This document shows positions 8,701 to 63,880 of a DNA stretch of 64,000 nucleotides, piece by piece. Position numbers and translations under genes: made by a program. The notes beneath the pieces were generated by a model. It was not told the DNA's origin and searched no databases. It saw only the letters and a list, made by a program, of their open reading frames with translations. The stretch spans positions 19,935 to 83,934 of IMG/VR virus record IMGVR_UViG_3300012956_000016; one strand, 5' to 3'. Each line of letters opens with the position of its first letter. The stretch's first letter is position 1. The DNA comes from a virus. Taxonomy: Duplodnaviria > Caudoviricetes.

Positions 8701-11700
8701 AACATCGGTCTTCTTGATTATGTTTTAAGAAACTTTGGTAATGTTGATGAGTTAACTGACAACAAAGAAGGTCAAGGTATGATCTCTTATCATCAGTTAA
8801 AATCTAAGTACATCTCTGATGAAGAGCGTGAAGCTTTCTTAGATAACAACGAACAAAACCAAAACGAAGAAGATAAATACTCTAAAGGTAAAGAAGGATA
8901 TGATCGTGGTGGTAATGAGTCTTCATTAGAAGACCAAGCTAGTACCGAAGTTCTTTACATGATTAGATCTTTACATAAAACTAATTTAAACGGTGAAGTA
9001 GTTTTAAATAAATTAGGTGTTCCTGAGCTTGCTGGTTTTGAACAAGTATGGACTCGTCTTGCACGTATATTACAAAACACTTTGAACATAGATGATATGT
9101 ATCAAAAGTTAGTAGTAGAGTCTAGTACATTTCCACCAGCAAAACAGTTACTAAACAAACTTGGTCCAGTAAGAACTGAAAGTTCAAGTGAGTTCGCTAT
9201 GTGGACAAACTTCTGGCAAGCATTCAATAAGACTCGTATTCCTTTAATCCAAATGACTCTTGAGAAAACTACTCTTGATGACAATGGATCGAAAACAAGT
9301 CCTAGCTATTCAGTACGTATTGGTGAAGCATCTGCTGATTACAAGAAAGTTGGCCAACGATGGGAGAATTACTTTAAGACTTCCTATGACAACCCGTATA
9401 TCAAAACAGATAGCTTTGGTTCAAACTTCCTGGATGTTAAAAAGGTCCTTGATGATTTTCCTCAAAACACTTTAGATGGAAGAGAGTTCGAGTTCTTTAA
9501 CGCGATAGGAATGAGACTGTCAGATAAGGATGAGATCCATGATGGTATTCGTAAACAAAGTATAGGTAAAGCACGATCTATTCGTAGTGCTTTATACTCT
9601 ATAAATCAAAGAGGTAATATCACAGTTGACAGTGTAGGGTCTATTGTAAAAGAATACCCTGCACTTACTATCGGTGAGATTACTTATCCTAAGATCCCAG
9701 GAGAGAAAAGAAACTATAACAAGCTTCAAGAATTAGAAGCAAGATACTCTGATGACTTTTCTAACTTCATGGTTACAAATGCTGAGGGTAATAGTCAGTT
9801 CGAGCATTCACTTAATAACTCTTTAACTGTTATTACAAATACAGTAAACAGAGTTAACAGTTATGATGAGTTGATACAGATTCCTTATATGTCTTACTTA
9901 GACATTAATCGTAATCCTTTTGCTAAGGCTTCTATCTGGCTTAACTCTATCTTTGATATGAGTAAACCTGGTCGTCCTAAGAGAAGACAATCAGATGATC
10001 CTAAGTCAGAGTTTGTGAATATCAATCTTCAAAACTTATCTGGTGTTGCCATGTTAGAAAATGGTAACTCTACAGATGAAGGTGTTGCTTCTGCGAAAGC
10101 TGATGAGTTCACTAAGATGATTTTGGATTTCCACTTAGCTGTAGTTAATGGTACACCAGAGTTAATGCGACATGCTGATAAAGGAACTTCGTTTTCTTTA
10201 TGGTTAAGTAATGTCAATACTAAGTCTGAGACTAAACGATTATATATAGACACTTCTTCTTTCGTTACAGTTAACGATCGTACACCAGGATATGTTGAAG
10301 CATTCCAACTTATATCTCCTTACATAGGAGCAGAGTTAGAACGTATAAAAGAAATGAAAAGATTATCTGTTGAAGGAGTTAACAACTTTGATTTTAACTA
10401 TCTTGAGAGAGGTAAAGACTTTGTTATTTTTGATGACGTGTTATCTCGTAAAACTAAGAAGAGATTATTAAACTTACCTTATCCTCTTACAGAATATATG
10501 AGAGGAGGATCTTTAGAAGATGCAAGTCTTATCTCAGATATGTTTAATGATTTCACAAACTACTTTGAAACACAAGTAAGTGATGTTGATACACAGTTAT
10601 CTAAAGCTAAGTTTGTTGCTGATAGTTTAATCAGCCAGGTAAAAGCAGAAGCTACTAAGAAAAACATTAAAGGTGTGAATGAGATATCAGCATACAAAGC
10701 TGCTATATCTTCTTTCGTGTTTAACAGTTGGATCCATAACATTGAATCTATTGCTTTTATATATGGTGACTTAGCTCAGTACAACATGGCTAAAGAAGAG
10801 TTTCATAAACGTAATGCTGGTATGGCTTCTACCGGGGATATATTCCGTACAGATAGAAGTGCCATCGATTATGCTAACAAAGTACTTGGACAAAAATATG
10901 CTGATTCTCTAAACATTCCTATTACACCATTCGATGGAACATTTAGTTCTGCAGTAATGGGAGATAACGAGATAGGATCAAAATACTACGAACAGTATCT
11001 TAAAGCTATTGGAGATCCTAAAGCTGCTGAGGCATATGCTGAAGGTAAGATGACTGAAGGTGATGCACAAGGTTGGATTACTTTTGACTCATACCGACAC
11101 ATGTTAAACCTTGAAGGTAAGTGGAGTAAGAAACAAGAAGCTTTATATCAAAAAATAGTTTCTGGTGCAGAAGTTAGTAATGAAGATACTAAAGAGTTCT
11201 TCCCTACTAAAAAGGTGCAATACTTTGGTCCACTTGATACTAATGGTTTACCTATCACAGCTTTCCATAAGTTCTCTTTATTCCCTTTAATACCAACAGT
11301 TATCAAAGGAACTAATCTTGAGAACTTACACAAGAAGATGATGATGGAAGGCGTTAACTATGGTCTCTTCAAATCAGGATCTAAAGTAGGAACAATAACT
11401 AAAGCAGGTAAGACAGATAAGTTTTACTCTGATCAAAATACACGTACGTTATCAGAAGAACCATTTACAAAGAACCGTATCTTCTTAGAGTTTTTAAAGG
11501 ATCAGTTAGAAATAGCTCCTAAGTTTAAAAACAAAGTTATCTTCTCAACTCAGTTAAGAAAGTTAATTGAAGATGGTTTAATGGAAGGTGGAGTACCTAC
11601 TGATTACAAACAAGAAAGATCTATCTCAGATAGAAGAGCTGAATGGGCAAGACTTAACGAAGCCGAAAGATTAAAAACTTCTCCTCGTTATAAACTCATG

Positions 11701-14700
11701 AAAGCTTATGAACATAATGTTCGTACTCTTACAGATGTAAGAAAGAAAGAGCTTTTACATGAAGCTGGTTGGAAGATGGAAAACGGTAAGCCAACGGGTA
11801 GTATTGAGAAGTTATTAGAGTTTGTATCAAAAGAATTAGCTAGACAAGATCTTGCGGATCATGAGTTAGACTTTATACAAGTTGGTTCTGATGGTAAGAT
11901 TAAGCATGACTTATCTATGTCGTTAAGTGCTGATAAAATCGAAAGATTATTAAATGCATTAGTGACTCGTAGATTAGTAAGACAAAAAGTTAATGGTGAA
12001 GGTCTTATCCAAGTATCTGGTGCCGGCTTTGAAAACATGACTGCTTACACTAATCCTGAAGCAAAAGATTTAGCTAAATGGGGTACGAATGACTTGCCAA
12101 CTTATCACCAAGGTGTAGATGGAAAGACTACTGCTATGAAAGTTAAGATAGCTATACAAGGACAGTTCGAGAAGTTACTTAATCTTGATGATGTAAAAAA
12201 CTATGCGTACGATAATAGTGTGGATAGACTTACAGCTCTTAACCATCTTATCAAAGATAATGATTGGTTGAACAGAGATAACAATCGTAGAGCAGTTACT
12301 ATGGTTGGTGTTCGTATTCCGGTACAAGGTCTTAACTCTATGGAGTTCATGGAAGTGTATGAGTTCTTACCTAAAGCTGCAGGTAACATTATTGTTCCAC
12401 CAGCTGAGATCGTTGCTAAGTCTGGATCCGATTTCGATATTGATAAGTTGACAGTTATGATGCCAACTTTCAAGATGATGGATAAGAAATTAGAAGTAGC
12501 AAGACAGTACTCTCCAAGTGAAATAAAAGATCTTTATGAGAAAGCTAAGAAAGCTAAAGTTGAAAAAGCTTTATTAAAAGACTTTGATGGTAACTTAATA
12601 CATACAGATTCAAGACGTAAAGTTCGTGATGAAAGTGGTGAGTGGGTTGAAAGAACCTTCGATCCTTATTTATACAACGATATGTTAAGAAAGATCTTTG
12701 GTGTAGATATGGAGAACCTTGATGAGGAACTTGTAAGTGAGATCTTATCTGAAGAAAAGATGCCAACTTTCGAAGAGTTCTCTGATAAGATAAATGGTTC
12801 AAAAGCTGTAGAGAATGATTTAATCTGGAACATCCGTCAAATCTTAGAGTTGCCTGAAAACTTCTCTAACTTAATCAGACCTAATGGTACAGATATTGTT
12901 GAACCTTTAGCTCGTGAGTTACAAGATCAAGTTATGGAATACAACCCTAAGAAACGTGTATTTGCTAACGAAGAAAAATCAAAACAAGTATCAGGAACAA
13001 GAGTTCTTGAGCTTAACTATAACTTATACAAACACAGTTCTAATAACATCGGTAAACAAACTTTAGGTTTGGGTGCTGTTGATAATACATACAACGTAGT
13101 GTTTAACCGTATTGGAGCAAGGATGAATCCAAGCTTTATGTCTGGTCGTGGTAAAAGTAAGTATGAAAAACGTTTAACACTTCTTCTACCACATAATACA
13201 ATCGATGTAGAAGATAAGAAAGCTATATCACTTTCTCATATATTAGATGCTGAGAATAATAATAAGATCTCCGATGTTATCTCTCAGCTTATGAATGGTT
13301 GGGTGGATATCGCAAAGGATGCCTGGATCTTTAATATCCAAGGTAATAAAGAGATTGCACCTAGTTTGTTGTTTATGATACAAGCTGGTGTTCCTTTCAA
13401 GACAGCTGTATACTTAGTATCTCAGCCTCTTGTACGTGAATACATCCGACAACAAAAACTGGCCAAAAGTACATTCGCTGATCCTTTAGGTAAAGCAGCA
13501 GCTAATCCTGCATTCTTTAGAAGTAAAGCCCGTGAAGTTATTTTGGAAAGTCCTCGTTATGGATTTGACTTAGTTGCTTCTCAAATGAAACAAGGTACTT
13601 TTGAAAGAGCTTTATATGATAGAACTCTTGAACTTACTGCTGCTAACAAATCAGCATTTAATCAAGACAGTTTAAAAGCTGTTATCAAAAGCTACTCAGA
13701 GACTACTAAGAAAGGTGAGTTACATCAAACTACTGATGCTGAAAGAGCTACCTTCTTACACTTCCTTGAGATTGAGAATATGACCAAGGCTGTACGTGAT
13801 ATCAAGATGAAAATGAACTTTGATACTTCTAAGTCAGCTACTTTGTTTGATGCACAAAACAGACAGTTAATGGTAGAAGATCTTAAGAACGATGGAAGGA
13901 TTCCTGATAACATTGTAAATGATATCTTGGAGAACTCTCCTATAGGTAGTTTTTATATTCAACCGTTCCAGTTAGAGATCTGGAAAGACTTGTTTAAACT
14001 AAGAAACCATCCGGTATTGAACCAATACTTAATGGACAAGTTCAAAGCAGGTAACCAAGATGATGTAACTAACACATACGGTGACTCTGAAAAGTTTGCT
14101 AATGAGTTCAGAAATGATTTCATGAGTTTCATCTTCCAAAATAAAGTAAGAGAGTTTGACTTAGATGCTCCTTCTTACAAAGGATTAACTTTAAATACAG
14201 AGATACCAGTTAAAACTGTGGCTAGCTTAGTGTTTGGTGCCATTGTAAAACAAGACACAGTAAGTCCTATCTTATATGTAGATAAAGAACAACTTAAAAA
14301 AGACTTTGTTAACAAAAACTTTTCAACTGAGTCTTACATAAAAAGAGGTCTTGCAACTGTTGCTCCTAATGCATTCCCTTATTCAAGAGATTACTACAAG
14401 TTTGTGTTCGAACGTGAATACTTACGTGCTTTATATCCTATTGATAAGTTGGTTCAGTCTGAAGACTTCCAAGATAAATACGAGCATAACTTAAGTAATA
14501 GAAAGAATCTTAAAGAAGGTGAGAGTGATCAAACTTTTGCTAAGAGAATGAAAGGTGTTACTTACGAAGAGATGCTTAGAGATATGGCCCTGGATAATAC
14601 TTTCAATGGTTGGAAGATCTTCAAAAGTAATAACACTTACGCGGATCAGTTCTTACGTATACGTGAGAAGTATCCTGAGTTAGCTAATGATTTCTCTATT

Positions 14701-56279: not shown

Positions 56280-56353
56280 GGGTCAGAATAGGATTTGAAC
56301 CTATGTTTCGTTCATCGGTTAGAACGCGTCCTAACCAGTTAAACGATCTGACA
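56280..56353 (-). tRNA. tRNA-like gene with 8-nt anticodon loop (identity undetermined, possibly pseudo)
   Basis: GTCAGA/TCTGAC acceptor, GTTT/GGAC D-stem with GG, CGTTC-TAACCGAT-GAACG, ATAGG-TTCAAAT-CCTAT T-arm. Confidence 0.65.
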
Positions 56354-56360
56354 AATAAAG

Positions 56361-56574
56361 ATCACTAAGTTATCTTCTCTTACATTGTATATAAACTTCT
56401 CGGCAGAGTGTTCATTTTAACACAGATCTAAACTAATATATGTCTAGTCTTTTACTTGTGTCTAGTCTATATACCTCAAGTAATCAGTTTATGTCAATCG
56501 AAGATCCCAGCTAGAAGGCTCGCTTTTATAAGATGGCTCCATCTATCCCGCAGCGGTGACTTTACCTTAGTGAT
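56361..56574 (-). ncRNA. Candidate structured ncRNA (about 215 nt) between two tRNA genes
   Basis: Terminal 9-bp IR ATCACTAAG/CTTAGTGAT; shares ordered blocks with the 61.9-62.7 kb element. Confidence 0.5.
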
Positions 56575-56578
56575 TTAG

Positions 56579-56650
56579 TAGCGGGAGGTGGATTTGAACC
56601 ACCGACCTCGAGATTATGAGTCTCGCGAGCTACCCCTGCTCTATCCCGCA
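56579..56650 (-). tRNA. tRNA-Met(CAT), initiator-like
   Basis: Cloverleaf; anticodon CAT at 56618-56616; T1:T72 mismatch and A11:T24 pair; CCA not encoded. Confidence 0.9.
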
Positions 56651-57075
56651 ATGTTGTTTTGTACATGTTTAATGTAAGACTTTAATACTCCATCAATATT
56701 AGCTTTTCCAACAGGATTAGCTGATTGCATGTTATACTTTGGTAATTCTTTATTGTGATCCATACAGTAGTTAACTAACCACTTAGCACAGTCATATCCT
56801 GTAAGTTCATGTTCTGGCCACGGTTGACCATCAAAATATTCAGGATAACCATTTCTAAAAGCTTGATAATCTCCTAAATCATGATCAAAGCAAATAGCAT
56901 CAGGTAAACCATTAGTTGTTATCCAAGCTACGAACTCATTATAAGACTTAACCCAGATTACTTCAAAAGGTTGTTGTATAGGACTAAAAGTCCAAGCCCA
57001 TTTACTCTCACCAGGACAATATCCAAGAGGATCACGGTAATCATCAAGCCACAGTAGTTTTTTCATTAGTGACAC
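56641..57075 (-). CDS. Cyclic-phosphate-processing receiver (cREC) domain protein
   Basis: LWLDDYRDP, VKSYNEF, ICFDHDLG, TGYDCAKWL, QSANPVG. Confidence 0.8.
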   Translation of the reverse strand: MSLMKKLLWLDDYRDPLGYCPGESKWAWTFSPIQQPFEVIWVKSYNEFVAWITTNGLPDAICFDHDLGDYQAFRNGYPEYFDGQPWPEHELTGYDCAKWLVNYCMDHNKELPKYNMQSANPVGKANIDGVLKSYIKHVQNNIAG

Positions 57076-57278
57076 CAGTTTTGTTTATACTTACCACATG
57101 GACATATCCATCCTTCTTTTGTAGCTATTAATACACCATCTTTTGATCGATCTCTTGGCTCTTGATTAACTTCACATTCAGGAGCTTTTCTATCACATGT
57201 ATAAGGATGCATCCTACGAGAAGATTGGTACTCATTTAGTTCTTTAACTTTCTCGTCTGTAAAAGGTGCTTTTATCAT
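57066..57278 (-). CDS. Small Cys/His-rich phage protein
   Basis: HPYTC...C...GWICPC...QNWCH. Confidence 0.7.
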   Translation of the reverse strand: MIKAPFTDEKVKELNEYQSSRRMHPYTCDRKAPECEVNQEPRDRSKDGVLIATKEGWICPCGKYKQNWCH

Positions 57279-57298
57279 AATCTTAAGTTTTAATAAGT

Positions 57299-57327
57299 AA
57301 AAAAGTCCAGATCATTCGACCTGGACT
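57299..57327 (-). terminator. Intrinsic terminator downstream of tmRNA/tRNA-Pro
   Basis: AGTCCAG/CTGGACT stem followed by T5. Confidence 0.7.
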
Positions 57328-57418
57328 CACATGACCCCTGTCTTATGGTCCATTGTTTGACAACATTAACAGTCTTTACCACAAACTCGGTCAACGAGCA
57401 GAGTTGAACATGCATTCG

Positions 57419-57492
57419 TCGAGATGGCCAGATTCGAACTGACGGCCTCCACGTCCCAAACGTGGCGCGATACCGGGCTACGCTACATCTCG
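57419..57492 (-). tRNA. tRNA-Pro(TGG)
   Basis: CGAGATG/CATCTCG acceptor, CCACG-TTTGGGA-CGTGG, TTCGAAT T-loop; CCA not encoded. Confidence 0.93.
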
Positions 57493-57585
57493 TGGTATGG
57501 GTAACAGTATTACTACCGAAGCTACTACCCCATCTTTGATTGTTTATACCTGTCCGTAGCTGGGTCGTAAATATAAACTAACCTG

Positions 57586-57970
57586 TGGACCCGGAGAGAT
57601 TCGAACTCTCGTCCAAATAATGAATAAAAATGCTTTCTACGATGTTTAGTACTGACGAACTGTACTGTAGATATTACACCTTTTTACTCTTAGGTTGAGG
57701 ATCTTTGGTAGAAGCAGAACACACCCTGCTTCAACTACCATACGGTGTTCGGTTAGGCTGCTACTAACTCTCTTTTTGCAGTAGCTTTAACAGCACCTGC
57801 GAAATCGAATTTTACAACTTTACCTTCAGCGGCAATAACATCTTGGATGTTACCTACCTCGTTAGAAACGATAGCTTTTATCTTTTGAAAGTTCAGATTA
57901 AAGTGCTCTACGGACAACGCACTACATGCTTACATTTTTACCGCGATTACTGTCAAAACCGGTCGGGCCC
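57586..57970 (-). ncRNA. ssrA: Transfer-messenger RNA (tmRNA)
   Basis: 5' GGGCCCGACCGGTTTTGACAG; 3' GGACGAGAGTTCGAATCTCTCCGGGTCCA; G3:U70 pair and A73; tag ORF 57875-57753 ending LVAA*. Confidence 0.93.
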
Positions 57971-57990
57971 ATTATTTTAAAGAACTGGAA

Positions 57991-58021
57991 CAAAGATAAT
58001 ACTTAATCTTTGTATTCCAAA
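57991..58021 (-). promoter_or_regulatory. Consensus Bacteroidota promoter driving tmRNA
   Basis: TTTG (58021-58018), 19-nt spacer, TATCTTTG (57998-57991), 20 nt upstream of the tmRNA 5' end. Confidence 0.75.
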
Positions 58022-60347: not shown

Positions 60348-60421
60348 TATTGTTTTTTTTAGTTTTATTAGTTCTTTGATTAGTTAGTAAGGTAGAACTA
60401 TTTAACCTTAATGTTTTTATT

Positions 60422-60449
60422 AAAAAAGCACCGATCCTAAGACCGGTGC
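60422..60449 (-). terminator. Intrinsic terminator
   Basis: GCACCG/CGGTGC stem followed by T6. Confidence 0.75.
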
Positions 60450-60454
60450 CGTAT

Positions 60455-60842
60455 GGGATTCCTCAACATAGACAATGTAGAAGCCTATTACAGCTCACAA
60501 GACATTTTCCGGTTCCTCTTCCTATATCCTCTTTCTGGACGTGACACTAAGACTTATACAGTCTATAGTTGAGGTGATTTTTCGTTATTCGCCACGGTAT
60601 GAAAGAAAGAATCATACCATATAATCGGAAAGCTCCTGATAGCTACAATAATGTAGTCCCTCTATCAGGCCATTGTAAAAGTAGTAGTAAGAACCTTTTT
60701 CAAGTTTACCAGAATAATCGTACCGCAAGACCTCTTGGACGGTAGGCACCGTTGGATTTGACTCTTTCGAGGGAGTTCCGCCATTCAAAGTGGTAGTTCT
60801 CTTATAAACCCTTAACCTGAAGCAGATCAGGCACTACTACTT
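60455..60842 (-). ncRNA. Candidate structured ncRNA(s), about 390 nt
   Basis: Long IRs AAGTAGTAGT/ACTACTACTT (60679/60833) and CCTCAAC(T)ATAGAC/GTCTATGTTGAGG (60461/60561), plus hairpins at 60596-60618 and 60635-60669; no ORF. Confidence 0.55.
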
Positions 60843-61850
60843 CTTATCTTCTTCCCAAGTAATACCTGGGCAGTAATCTTTTTTAACGGTCATTATATAC
60901 TTCCAGAAGAAACCAAAGAAAGTTCCTAACTTGATACAACCTGCACCAATAACATCTATAAATAACCAAGTTATAAATCGAGATATTAATGAAGGTTTTC
61001 CTGACCTAGTTGGTAAGTAACATTTAACAGTATCATACAATTTGCTCAATATAAAAGCTAATATCACTATAAATATTATAGCTCCTAGTAATATACCAAT
61101 ACCTATCATAATGTTTACAAATCTCTCGTAGTAAAAATGATCTACAGTGTAGTTATACAATGAGTAAATCATCTTCCCGAACAAGTATACAAAGTAAATT
61201 CCTATTGGTAACAATAACCATTTAGTGTACTTAACGATAAACATAAACATAGCTTCTGTACGTTTTTTCTTTGCTTCTTTTCTAGCTTCTTCTTTACGAT
61301 TTTCTTCTTGAATACGTTCAAGTAATTGAGCTCTTTCAAGCTGTATTTTATCGAATTGTGCTTTACGTTGTTTCTGTATATTTATAAGCTTTTCTTCCCA
61401 ATTAGGAGTCTTATCTTTCCATACTTGAAATTGTTGTTTAAGCTTTTTTCTATCACAATCTTTAGTTGTATAATATACATCTCTACCATAATACTCTTCT
61501 TCAAAGAATCTGTAGTTATCAGCTTCTTCCTTACTATTATAGTTCCATCCGTTAAATATTCAACCTTGTATAATTTGGTCTTCATCCATAGATAAAGCTT
61601 TCCTTATAACAACTGGTTCAATCATTGATGAATAAAGAACATCACTAAGTTTATCAACTAACATTATGAAACCTTCTCCAAGCCATTTGAAGATCTTGAT
61701 TAAAGGTACAATAGGTAAGATAAAAGTTACAAAAATGCAAAAGTTTGTCAACCAGAAATAGGGACAAAGATTAGAGAATAAAGGTGGATTACGAAACACA
61801 TACTTTTGTAGTTTTCTATGCCAACCATTGGGGTTAAGTTTTACTTCCAT
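60837..61850 (-). pseudogene. Multi-TM/coiled-coil protein gene split by a single in-frame TGA (readthrough or nonsense)
   Basis: ORF 61850-61560 ends ...QG-TGA; the same frame stays open for 103 codons into ORF 61250-60837. Confidence 0.7.
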
Positions 61851-61879
61851 GTTAAAGTTTAAAGTTTATATATTGTTTA

Positions 61880-62700
61880 ATTATTGTCCCGAAGGGAAGC
61901 AATTCTCCTAAGACACTCTTTCGAGTAGCTTCAATCTTAGGCCGTGCTACTTATTGTATCTTAACGAAGGTGAACTAAATCAGCGTAGTTAAAGATAGGT
62001 ATGTAGTCTGCATCCTTCATGATTTAACGAATCTGACCTGCAGAATCTCGCTCGTTCATTCGAATGTCTAACTGGCTTTTATAGCTAACCTGCACATGTC
62101 TTAGAGTACCTATAATCTCGCATTGAAGCATCTATGTTTTTCTATATTGTTGCATAGTAATAGCAGGCTTTCAGGTACATTTCTTCAAGTTTAAAGAAAT
62201 ATTTACGAGATCTCTCCTGGCCCCTCAATTATAGTTCGTCATTATCTTGAAAACAAATTCAATATTTGCTAATGACTATACTCATAAGTCTTTAATAAGT
62301 TGAACACCCACACCTACACATAGAGGTTCTTATACACTCAGATTTCACGATAGAATTTCTGTTTTATGTGATTTCGAATTATTCCTAGGCTTTATACATC
62401 GGAGTCTTAACACTCGCGTATGCCTACGGTATGGTTAAAAAGATGTTAAGGTTCTTTTATGTTCAATGTCTTGGAGAACCAGTACATCCTCTCTATTTCA
62501 ATATCAGGGAGTTTGAAAGAACTTACCATTGGAACGATCAAGTTCTCTACTCTTTATGTCTGTTAATCGATACCCAAAGTATATAAGATGGCTGTACCTC
62601 GTACACAAAGTCTCATATTCTACCGAAAATTCTCCAATTCTTATAAGGGTGAGAGCTTTCCACTCTCATGCCGACTGGTTACGGTTAACCCGAGGGTACC
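61880..62700 (-). ncRNA. Candidate large structured ncRNA (about 820-840 nt)
   Basis: ORF-free intergenic stretch with more than 10 hairpins, UUCG and GAAA loops and crossing helices. Confidence 0.6.
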
Positions 62701-62701
62701 C

Positions 62702-63163
62702 TTAATGTCTTCCAAAGTTATAGATATATGATGTATCTATTGTAGGACTACCTTGGTGTAAAGTTAACGATGTTGTTGTAACACCATTAATACTGTACAC
62801 GTTAGTTCCTACTAACAATGTATCTAAAGTAGCTTTCCATTGCGTAATACTTCCTAAACCATTTATAGAGTTAACAGCTTTTTTCCATGTACCGTTTTGA
62901 GGTACAACGTCGATACTGTCAAGTCTTAAGTAGTGAGAAGATATAAAAGGATAAGTAACAGATAAAGAAGCTTGTGGTACACCGTTGATGTACACAAGTT
63001 TTTCTATCAAGTTCCATTCTCCTTTAATAGCAAGCTCTTCAGAGTTTAATATACTTTGAGTTGTCACATTATTTTGTGTATTTGTGACAGGAGTTGGTGA
63101 TGTTTTTTTACTACAGCTCATTATTAATGAACACATTAGTATAAGGATTTTAAAGTTTTTCAT
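62702..63163 (-). CDS. Lipocalin-like lipoprotein
   Basis: Lipobox LIMSC; LNSEELAIKGEWNL. Confidence 0.75.
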   Translation of the reverse strand: MKNFKILILMCSLIMSCSKKTSPTPVTNTQNNVTTQSILNSEELAIKGEWNLIEKLVYINGVPQASLSVTYPFISSHYLRLDSIDVVPQNGTWKKAVNSINGLGSITQWKATLDTLLVGTNVYSINGVTTTSLTLHQGSPTIDTSYIYNFGRH

Positions 63164-63167
63164 GATA

Positions 63168-63620
63168 CTAAAGTTTATGGAAGCTATATCTTATAGCTGA
63201 TCCTGTTGTTAATGAACCTGTGTAATAAGTAAGATGTGTTGATGTAAGAGTTTCTATTGTGTAAGTTGTAATTTGTATAAATAACTTACCAGAACTAGTA
63301 ACTTCCCAATCATTATTGATATCTGTGCCAGAAGTACCATTGATGCATTTTTTATATGTTCCAGTGGTTGCTGTAGAAGTAAACTCTATATGATAAACAG
63401 TTGAATCATTAAAGTATACTGTACCACCTGCTCCAGGTATAACAGTTCCATTAGATAATAACTCTTGTTTATCATAAGACCAATTTCCTACAAGTGATAA
63501 CTCTGTTGAGTTAAGTGTTACTGCAGTACTATTAGACGTTGAACTAACAGGTGCAGGTGATGATTTTTTACAGCTTGTTAATCCAATTAGGATAGCTGCG
63601 ATGAAAATAATTGTTTTCAT
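63168..63620 (-). CDS. Lipocalin-like lipoprotein (paralog of the adjacent gene)
   Basis: Lipobox GLTSC; LNSTELSLVGNWSY. Confidence 0.75.
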   Translation of the reverse strand: MKTIIFIAAILIGLTSCKKSSPAPVSSTSNSTAVTLNSTELSLVGNWSYDKQELLSNGTVIPGAGGTVYFNDSTVYHIEFTSTATTGTYKKCINGTSGTDINNDWEVTSSGKLFIQITTYTIETLTSTHLTYYTGSLTTGSAIRYSFHKL

Positions 63621-63880
63621 AATACAAGTTTTTAAGTTTAAGATTATTAAAGATACAAAATACCCACATACTACCGATCTCGATAGTATGCAAGTATTAT
63701 AGTTTTGCCATTTTTCTGCATTGTCTTACGCGTCTTTCAGTACTAATGTATTGTGGAGGCCACTAACTTTTGGCCGAAGTTATACCTCAGACGTTACACC
63801 TTCATTACTCGATTTGTAAAACCACCTGACTATCACAGGACGGGAATGGTTACCGTAGATTGGGATTTCACCAATGTCTT

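Follow-up and report, generated by a model that had tools for sequence, protein, structure and literature searches.

Structured non-coding RNA domains in a gene-free gap of an uncultured phage genome

The locus and its surroundings

The window analyzed in this study is a stretch of 64,000 nucleotides that forms the final 64 kb of an IMG/VR virus record; the record is 83.9 kb long, and its completeness was estimated at 70%. The window is densely packed with genes, the majority of them on the minus strand, and has a GC content of 35%. Its DNA polymerase shares no more than 34% identity with that of any GenBank phage and 41-43% with those of three IMG/VR contigs. Since the polymerase is distant from those of all cultured phages, the genome represents an isolated, uncultured lineage.

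A gap without genes was found at positions 61851-62701 (851 nt). It is bounded by the stop codon of a 153-aa gene and by the ATG, at 61850, of a membrane-protein gene. TAA, TAG, and TGA are all present in each of the six frames; hence, no single stop reassignment makes the gap coding, and alternative genetic codes were rejected because none opens 61851-62701. The gap had been described as the longest ORF-free one. It is indeed ORF-free, and it is the longest among the window gaps without a known RNA gene; the stretch 57076-58002, which harbors the tmRNA and tRNA-Pro, is longer. The tmRNA gene (57583-57970) and the tRNAs lie approximately 4 kb from the gap. tRNA and tmRNA models matched only at 56280-57970 of the window, with no match in the gap. 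The features of the locus, in the order of transcription of the minus strand, are as follows.

63659..63698, minus strand: terminator-like hairpin, upstream of a 150-aa gene (consensus scan)
62702..63163, minus strand: upstream gene, 153 aa (ORF list), with an N-terminus resembling a signal peptide; its stop codon is followed immediately by the first base of the RNA
62647..62701, minus strand: 5' leader, with two predicted hairpins including 62650-62668 (stem UGAGAG/CUCUCA), from single-sequence folds
62468..62640, minus strand: domain B', about 170 nt, closed (MFE fold; one sequence only)
62293..62473, minus strand: domain X, about 180 nt, closed, multi-helix; conserved in L005 (9505-9687) and L006 (1022-1195)
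62098..62289, minus strand: domain B, about 190 nt, closed, eight helices; present in L005, L006, L129, and L130
61897..62095, minus strand: domain C-D, about 200 nt, the 3' domain; closing helix 62091-62095 with 61897-61901
62059-62097, minus strand: conserved 5' block of C-D
62011-62066, minus strand: long hairpin of C-D
61946-62007, minus strand: variable hairpin of C-D
61907-61941, minus strand: D hairpin with a GAAA (GNRA) cap
61851..61896, minus strand: UCCC-UUCG-GGGA hairpin, then an A/U-rich spacer to the ATG at 61850; no terminator-like site here in the terminator scan
60837..61850, minus strand: membrane-protein gene, 337 codons (tblastn and translation), with one in-frame TGA at 61560-61562
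60400..60836, minus strand: second conserved structured RNA, about 400 nt, one gene downstream; it ends in the intrinsic terminator-like site 60427-60450

The terminator scan returned only 63659-63698 and 60427-60450, and none between 63659 and 60450. A putative minus-strand transcription unit of 3.2 kb, with the RNA inside it, may lie between these two sites. The 153-aa gene has no Pfam or PHROG match.

Known RNA families were searched using Rfam 15 and cmscan. The gap had no match, either at the gathering threshold (window) or at E<=10 with permissive filters (61400-63200), and the search of L005 positions 9250-11450 returned nothing at E<=10. GOLLD (RF01998) was rejected since its covariance model matched neither 61400-63200 nor L005 9250-11450 at E<=10, and the same held for ROOL (RF03087). 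Group I and group II introns were rejected as well, given that no Rfam match was obtained and that the ORFs on either side form complete genes of their own in every relative. The bulge of group II intron domain V lies on the 3' strand; unlike it, the D hairpin carries its internal loop on the 5' strand. blastn of the gap, of the 60400-60836 RNA, and of the L129 region against 50,697 GenBank phages gave no match. The original prediction had assigned the RNA to neither GOLLD nor ROOL and proposed a new large non-coding RNA class if Rfam gave no hit; as Rfam, the intron models included, gave none and the homologs of this minus-strand structured RNA covary, new large non-coding RNA family is a fair description.

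Relatives, domains, and covariation

Exact-peptide scans of IMG/VR with the flanking proteins returned nothing. A protein search with the upstream gene identified three relatives with 66-69% identity and led to the contigs L005 (15.1 kb, syntenic) and L006 (1.2 kb). Homologs of the extra 84-aa gene of L006 then led to L129 (19.4 kb), L130, and L131. As found, the RNA family comprises six contigs including the window, which fall into two subclades; the five related metagenomic contigs carry homologous pieces. Relatives are present in the Logan runs SRR29078246, SRR27686863, SRR21396299, and ERR12387328. It is thus a new RNA family with a narrow distribution (six metagenomic contigs).

Other routes extended the family no further. 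No homologous RNA was present in the relatives reached via the DNA polymerase (the three IMG/VR contigs with 41-43% identity), and the RNA was absent from those reached via the downstream membrane protein (L076-L081; 28-40% identity). Motif scans gave no real match among IMG/VR viral contigs (five patterns), 69 matches among JGI metagenome contigs, all due to chance as judged by blastn, and 45 among GTDB genome contigs, none of which was confirmed by the covariance model of domain B. The first two B motif patterns were too strict for L129-type sequences. Within the genome itself, no internal paralog or repeat of the gap RNA was found elsewhere. A 12-mer common to the gap and 56488-56538 was dismissed as chance level (about 8 such matches expected; no blastn match).

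Local alignments and covariance models divide the minus-strand RNA into six units, namely leader, B', X, B, C-D, and the small hairpin with its spacer. Each of B', X, B, and C-D has a terminal helix of its own that closes it. Three alignments (B, X, and C-D) were prepared, two of which were built into covariance models, R1 (B) and R2 (X).

Domain B contains the nearly invariant block GGCC..G.GAGAUCUC.U.AAU. In alignment A9 (six copies), 94.8% of cells are paired and double changes occur in 26 of the 44 pairs, compared with 13.9 +/- 2.3 with shuffled partners and 3-7 with slid partners. R1, built from three sequences, finds L129 (64 bits) and L130 (68 bits), neither of which was in the building set; both preserve the B structure. 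For domain X (alignment A3), the paired cells amount to 94%, and 19/52 pairs show double changes (shuffles 8.4 +/- 2.0; slid partners 1-6). R2 scores on X range from 179 to 187 bits. Domain C-D was aligned from the window, L005, L129, and L130 (A10); 91% of its cells are paired, with double changes in 23 of 45 pairs (shuffles 11.0 +/- 2.3; slid 1-6). The predicted covariation among homologs is thus borne out in all three domains, with the reservation that the counts are partly inherited and do not represent independent events, since the six contigs belong to only two subclades.

The structures were derived using RNAalifold on the same alignments, a circularity that is mitigated by the out-of-sample sequences L129 and L130 and by re-optimized shuffles. 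In the column-shuffle control, RNAalifold was re-run on every shuffled alignment, which controls the derivation bias. The resulting z scores are -7.8 for B, -5.7 for X, and -6.4 for C-D (two sequences), against -3.5, -3.8, and -2.8, respectively, on the reverse strand. The C part of C-D alone gives -5.7 versus -0.2 on the reverse strand. The weaker reverse-strand values, together with several invariant G-U pairs, indicate that the strand is the minus strand and that the molecule is RNA, as had been proposed.

The folding energy of the single sequence is unremarkable. For the whole gap, z is -1.0 on each strand, and the domains range from -0.7 to -2.0. The case was therefore decided by the comparison with homologs. 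Folding no better than shuffled controls had been named beforehand as part of what would speak against a structured RNA, along with the lack of covarying homologs; the first part was observed (z about -1), and the covarying homologs run counter to the second. An absence of any functional RNA, in which the gap is a decayed gene, a DNA-level element (an origin or a protein-binding array), or a neutral spacer, would agree with the ordinary single-sequence folding and with some local decay or sequencing error, as the in-frame TGA of the neighboring gene may reflect. Nevertheless, we regard it as highly improbable. Double changes lie far above the shuffled and slid controls in three domains, and DNA hairpins would show neither the strand asymmetry nor the invariant G-U pairs. 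Neither repeats nor iterons were found, and k-mer enrichment revealed no convincing repeated protein-binding motif. Indels among the RNA copies have lengths that are not multiples of three, and no conserved open frame occurs in any RNA copy of any relative. Judged from the alignments, the gap specifies a genuine structured non-coding RNA region that had not been described before. Its several domains fold separately, and related phages have preserved them through compensating changes.

The helices predicted from the single sequence differed in their fate. Those at 62230-62280 and 62179-62200 correspond to helices H2 and H7 of B, and that at 61907-61941 to the D hairpin with its GAAA loop; all three are conserved with compensatory changes. 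The helices at 62650-62668, 62581-62618, and 62516-62548 were reproduced in the single-sequence fold, and no relative shares that part. The leader (62647-62701) has no homolog in L005, L006, or L129 and occurs in this genome only, as does the 5' part of the RNA in general (about 230 nt). The small UUCG hairpin (61883-61903) recurs in L129 and L130 and is missing from L005.

Two crossing pairings had been proposed as pseudoknots. The first, GTACCT with AGGTAC, is not conserved: L005 breaks two of its six positions, and the bases involved are part of the covarying helices H1 and H3. The second, AGCCTGC with GCAGGTT, is a candidate pairing between B and C. It is complete in the window (7/7) and nearly so in L005 (6/7, with one double change), has 4/7 pairs in both L129 and L130, and competes with covarying helices. 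If formed in the window and L005, this possible pairing would argue for some integration between domains.

Domain order and putative transcription

The order and number of the domains differ among the relatives.

Window: 153-aa gene, leader, B', X, B, C-D, membrane gene, second RNA, terminator-like site
L005: gene, B, X, C-D, membrane gene, second RNA
L006: gene, ORF84, B, X (contig ends)
L129 and L130: gene, about 500-700 nt more structured RNA, B, ORF89, C-D, second RNA; without X and without the membrane gene

The additional stretch 5' of B in the L129-type relatives (L129 4268-4783; L130 911-1634) is non-coding and structured (two-sequence alifold z = -7.3; reverse strand -3.9). Within it lie a domain whose closing helix is GGAGUAUA/UAUACUCC and a second B-like copy (L130 1401-1544; 26 bits with R1). 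L129 carries three B-like domains, followed by ORF89 and C-D. The palindrome GAGAUCUC of B was considered as a dimerization loop and rejected, because the B-like second copies carry GACAUCUC and GAGGUCUC instead; its loss there argues against a symmetric kissing loop in these copies.

ORF84/89 (L006 590-844; L129 5001-5270) encodes 84-89 aa, belongs to no Pfam family, and is a real gene with 13 homologs. It lies 5' of B in L006 and between B and C-D in L129 and L130. In most contigs, an ORF-free stretch of 800-1040 nt comes after it.

Several observations point to kinship among the domains. The closing helix of B' is formed by 62630-62637 (UUGGAGAA) and 62471-62478 (UUCUCCAA), and its strands resemble those of B. 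With filters off, the entire R1 model aligned to B' (11.3 bits; E 0.004, spanning 262 nt). B' may therefore be a strongly diverged B-type domain, which the model and the closing strands weakly suggest. The start of X in the window still bears the 3' strands of a B-type closing helix, and B' pairs with these. Together with the weak R1 match of B', this makes B-X the most likely ancestral order in the window, the first copy having diverged and a further B having been inserted ahead of C. The X model also matched B domains over their full length (L130, 24.5 bits, E 6e-5; L129, 19.5 bits, E 1e-3), which suggests that B and X are old paralogs. The pairwise alignment of B and X was not significant, and the B model reached only 5.7 bits on X of L005. 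B and X, and with them B', are probably distant paralogs.

The original prediction had envisaged one pseudoknotted molecule of about 830 nt. What is conserved is a set of separately closed domains of about 180-200 nt whose number and order differ among relatives, and one of the two pseudoknots fails in L005. Given this variation and the small protein genes that lie between domains, a modular island is a better reading than one rigid 830-nt fold. We consider it probable that the locus represents a new family of minus-strand phage structured non-coding RNA that forms such a modular island, is co-transcribed and matured, and has domains that act in trans. The RNA starts at the base after an ORF stop (three contigs) and no terminator precedes the next gene; from this, we infer co-transcription with the flanking genes. 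The probable operon would extend from about 63650 to the terminator-like site at 60427, and its transcript would then probably be processed to yield one or more stable RNAs. Every closed domain would fold as a unit and act in trans, binding a protein or an RNA and serving as scaffold or decoy. Modules that act independently and bind a partner in this way are favored by the terminal helices that close the domains, by the variation in copy number, and by the genes interspersed among the domains.

The same transcript layout would suit elements acting in cis on the mRNA, as processing sites, stabilizers, or translational control of the flanking genes, with no action in trans. In the window and L005, the first base past the ORF stop already belongs to the RNA, and in L006 the RNA follows ORF84 by 5 nt. 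About 50 nt lie between the end of the RNA and the next start codon, and the RNA lacks a promoter-terminator pair of its own. Yet the flanking genes differ among the relatives while the domains persist, and no gap of this kind lies upstream of a closer membrane-gene homolog (P0006 contig). Moreover, about 800 nt of covarying multi-helix domains far exceeds the need of known leaders and stabilizers, and the RNA blocks are more conserved (70-92% identity between the window and L005) than the adjoining membrane protein (only 40%). A purely cis-acting role is accordingly quite unlikely in our judgment.

The second RNA (60400-60836) shows 77-81% identity to its counterparts in L005 and L129 and 75-81% to those in L129 and L130, and its core is about 95% identical to that of L005. 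Its alifold column-shuffle z is -11.2 (reverse strand -7.7), and neither an Rfam match, even at permissive thresholds, nor a GenBank-phage match was obtained. The membrane gene is absent from L129-type relatives, where C-D runs straight into the second RNA; this was observed in L129 and L130.

Another reading is one integrated giant RNA of the GOLLD/ROOL kind, in which the variable 5' B/X array and the conserved 3' C-D, possibly with the 60400-60836 RNA, would fold together and perhaps multimerize into an RNA-only particle. Size and phage setting, about 4 kb from tmRNA and tRNAs, are similar; the domains follow one another directly on one strand, no terminator separates them, and a conserved 3' part with a variable 5' part is the layout reported for GOLLD. 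The candidate B-C pairing, with its double change in L005, would fit as well. We nevertheless hold an integrated fold to be unlikely. Its pairing falls to 4/7 in L129 and L130, the loss of GAGAUCUC in the second copies speaks against symmetric kissing loops, and no GOLLD or ROOL covariance-model match appeared at E<=10. Domain number and order vary, the translated-looking ORF89 parts B from C-D in L129 and L130, and the 337-codon gene parts C-D from the second RNA in the window.

Comparison with known RNAs and minor observations

The RNA is several hundred nucleotides long (851 nt in the window, 603 nt in L005), non-coding, and phage-encoded, and has covarying helices, with 68 double-change pairs over B, X, and C-D; these are the features of large ornate phage non-coding RNAs. 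By kind, it is a large ornate phage RNA; by family, it is none of the known ones.

GOLLD RNAs, as reported, are multi-domain, many exceed 800 nt, and they occur in phages and prophages, often near tRNA islands. Their 3' region is reported to be conserved and their 5' region to vary more, and inserted genes (tRNAs) are reported to be tolerated in a linker. The gap RNA is similar in its conserved 3' domain C-D, its variable 5' array, the genes between its domains, and the tmRNA and tRNAs about 4 kb away. However, no sequence or helices are shared with GOLLD, and each gap domain has its own closing helix, with copy number and order differing among relatives. ROOL is reported as an ornate phage and prophage RNA near tRNA islands without a known protein partner. 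It adopts one pseudoknotted fold of about 580 nt, whereas the two candidates looked at in the gap RNA yielded no conserved pseudoknot.

The tRNA cluster of phage T4 yields the stable species 1 and 2 RNAs, whose function is unknown and which are cut from a longer transcript. This is the same maturation route as that proposed for the gap RNA. The T4 RNAs are shorter and lie inside the tRNA cluster, whereas the gap domains are 170-200 nt long and stand in tandem between protein genes. The phi29-type pRNA (RF00044) is a phage RNA domain of about 170 nt that is closed by pairing of its 5' and 3' ends. In contrast to it, the gap RNA has no Rfam match, belongs to a large phage distant from cultured ones, and has its domains in tandem inside a putative operon.

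To our knowledge, very few bacterial or phage RNAs longer than 500 nt are known, and GOLLD, ROOL, OLE, and raiA have each opened structural and functional questions. The locus adds a covariation-supported large-RNA family whose separately closed domains differ in number and order from relative to relative and accept protein genes in between. It thereby offers a natural test of whether large phage RNAs are integrated folds or arrays of independent modules. The alignments, covariance models, and exact domain borders make the RNA directly testable. A bolder scheme, conceivable though doubtful, is a giant modular phage RNA class in which the B/X-type array and the 3' domain, possibly with the 60400-60836 RNA, would form a higher-order particle or multivalent decoy that captures a host factor during infection. 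Given the nearby tmRNA and tRNAs, that factor might be related to translation.

Minor observations were made at neighboring genes. The in-frame TGA of the membrane gene (61560-61562) aligns with a Trp that is invariant in six homologs. It could be a TGG-to-TGA mutation, a sequencing error, or a read-through site; general recoding is unlikely, since TGA ends at least three other good genes. A tRNA-like gene at 56280-56353 (minus strand) reaches the Rfam tRNA gathering score (35 bits) and is not called by ARAGORN; the loop of its anticodon arm seems non-standard. It was rejected as a suppressor tRNA for this TGA because its anticodon arm contains no UCA. In L005, two ORFs with weak matches to LAGLIDADG homing endonucleases (13565-14663) lie between an intact tmRNA gene and tRNA-Pro; the window lacks this insertion. 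An intron in the L005 tmRNA was dismissed, as the tmRNA is intact and the two ORFs are free-standing.
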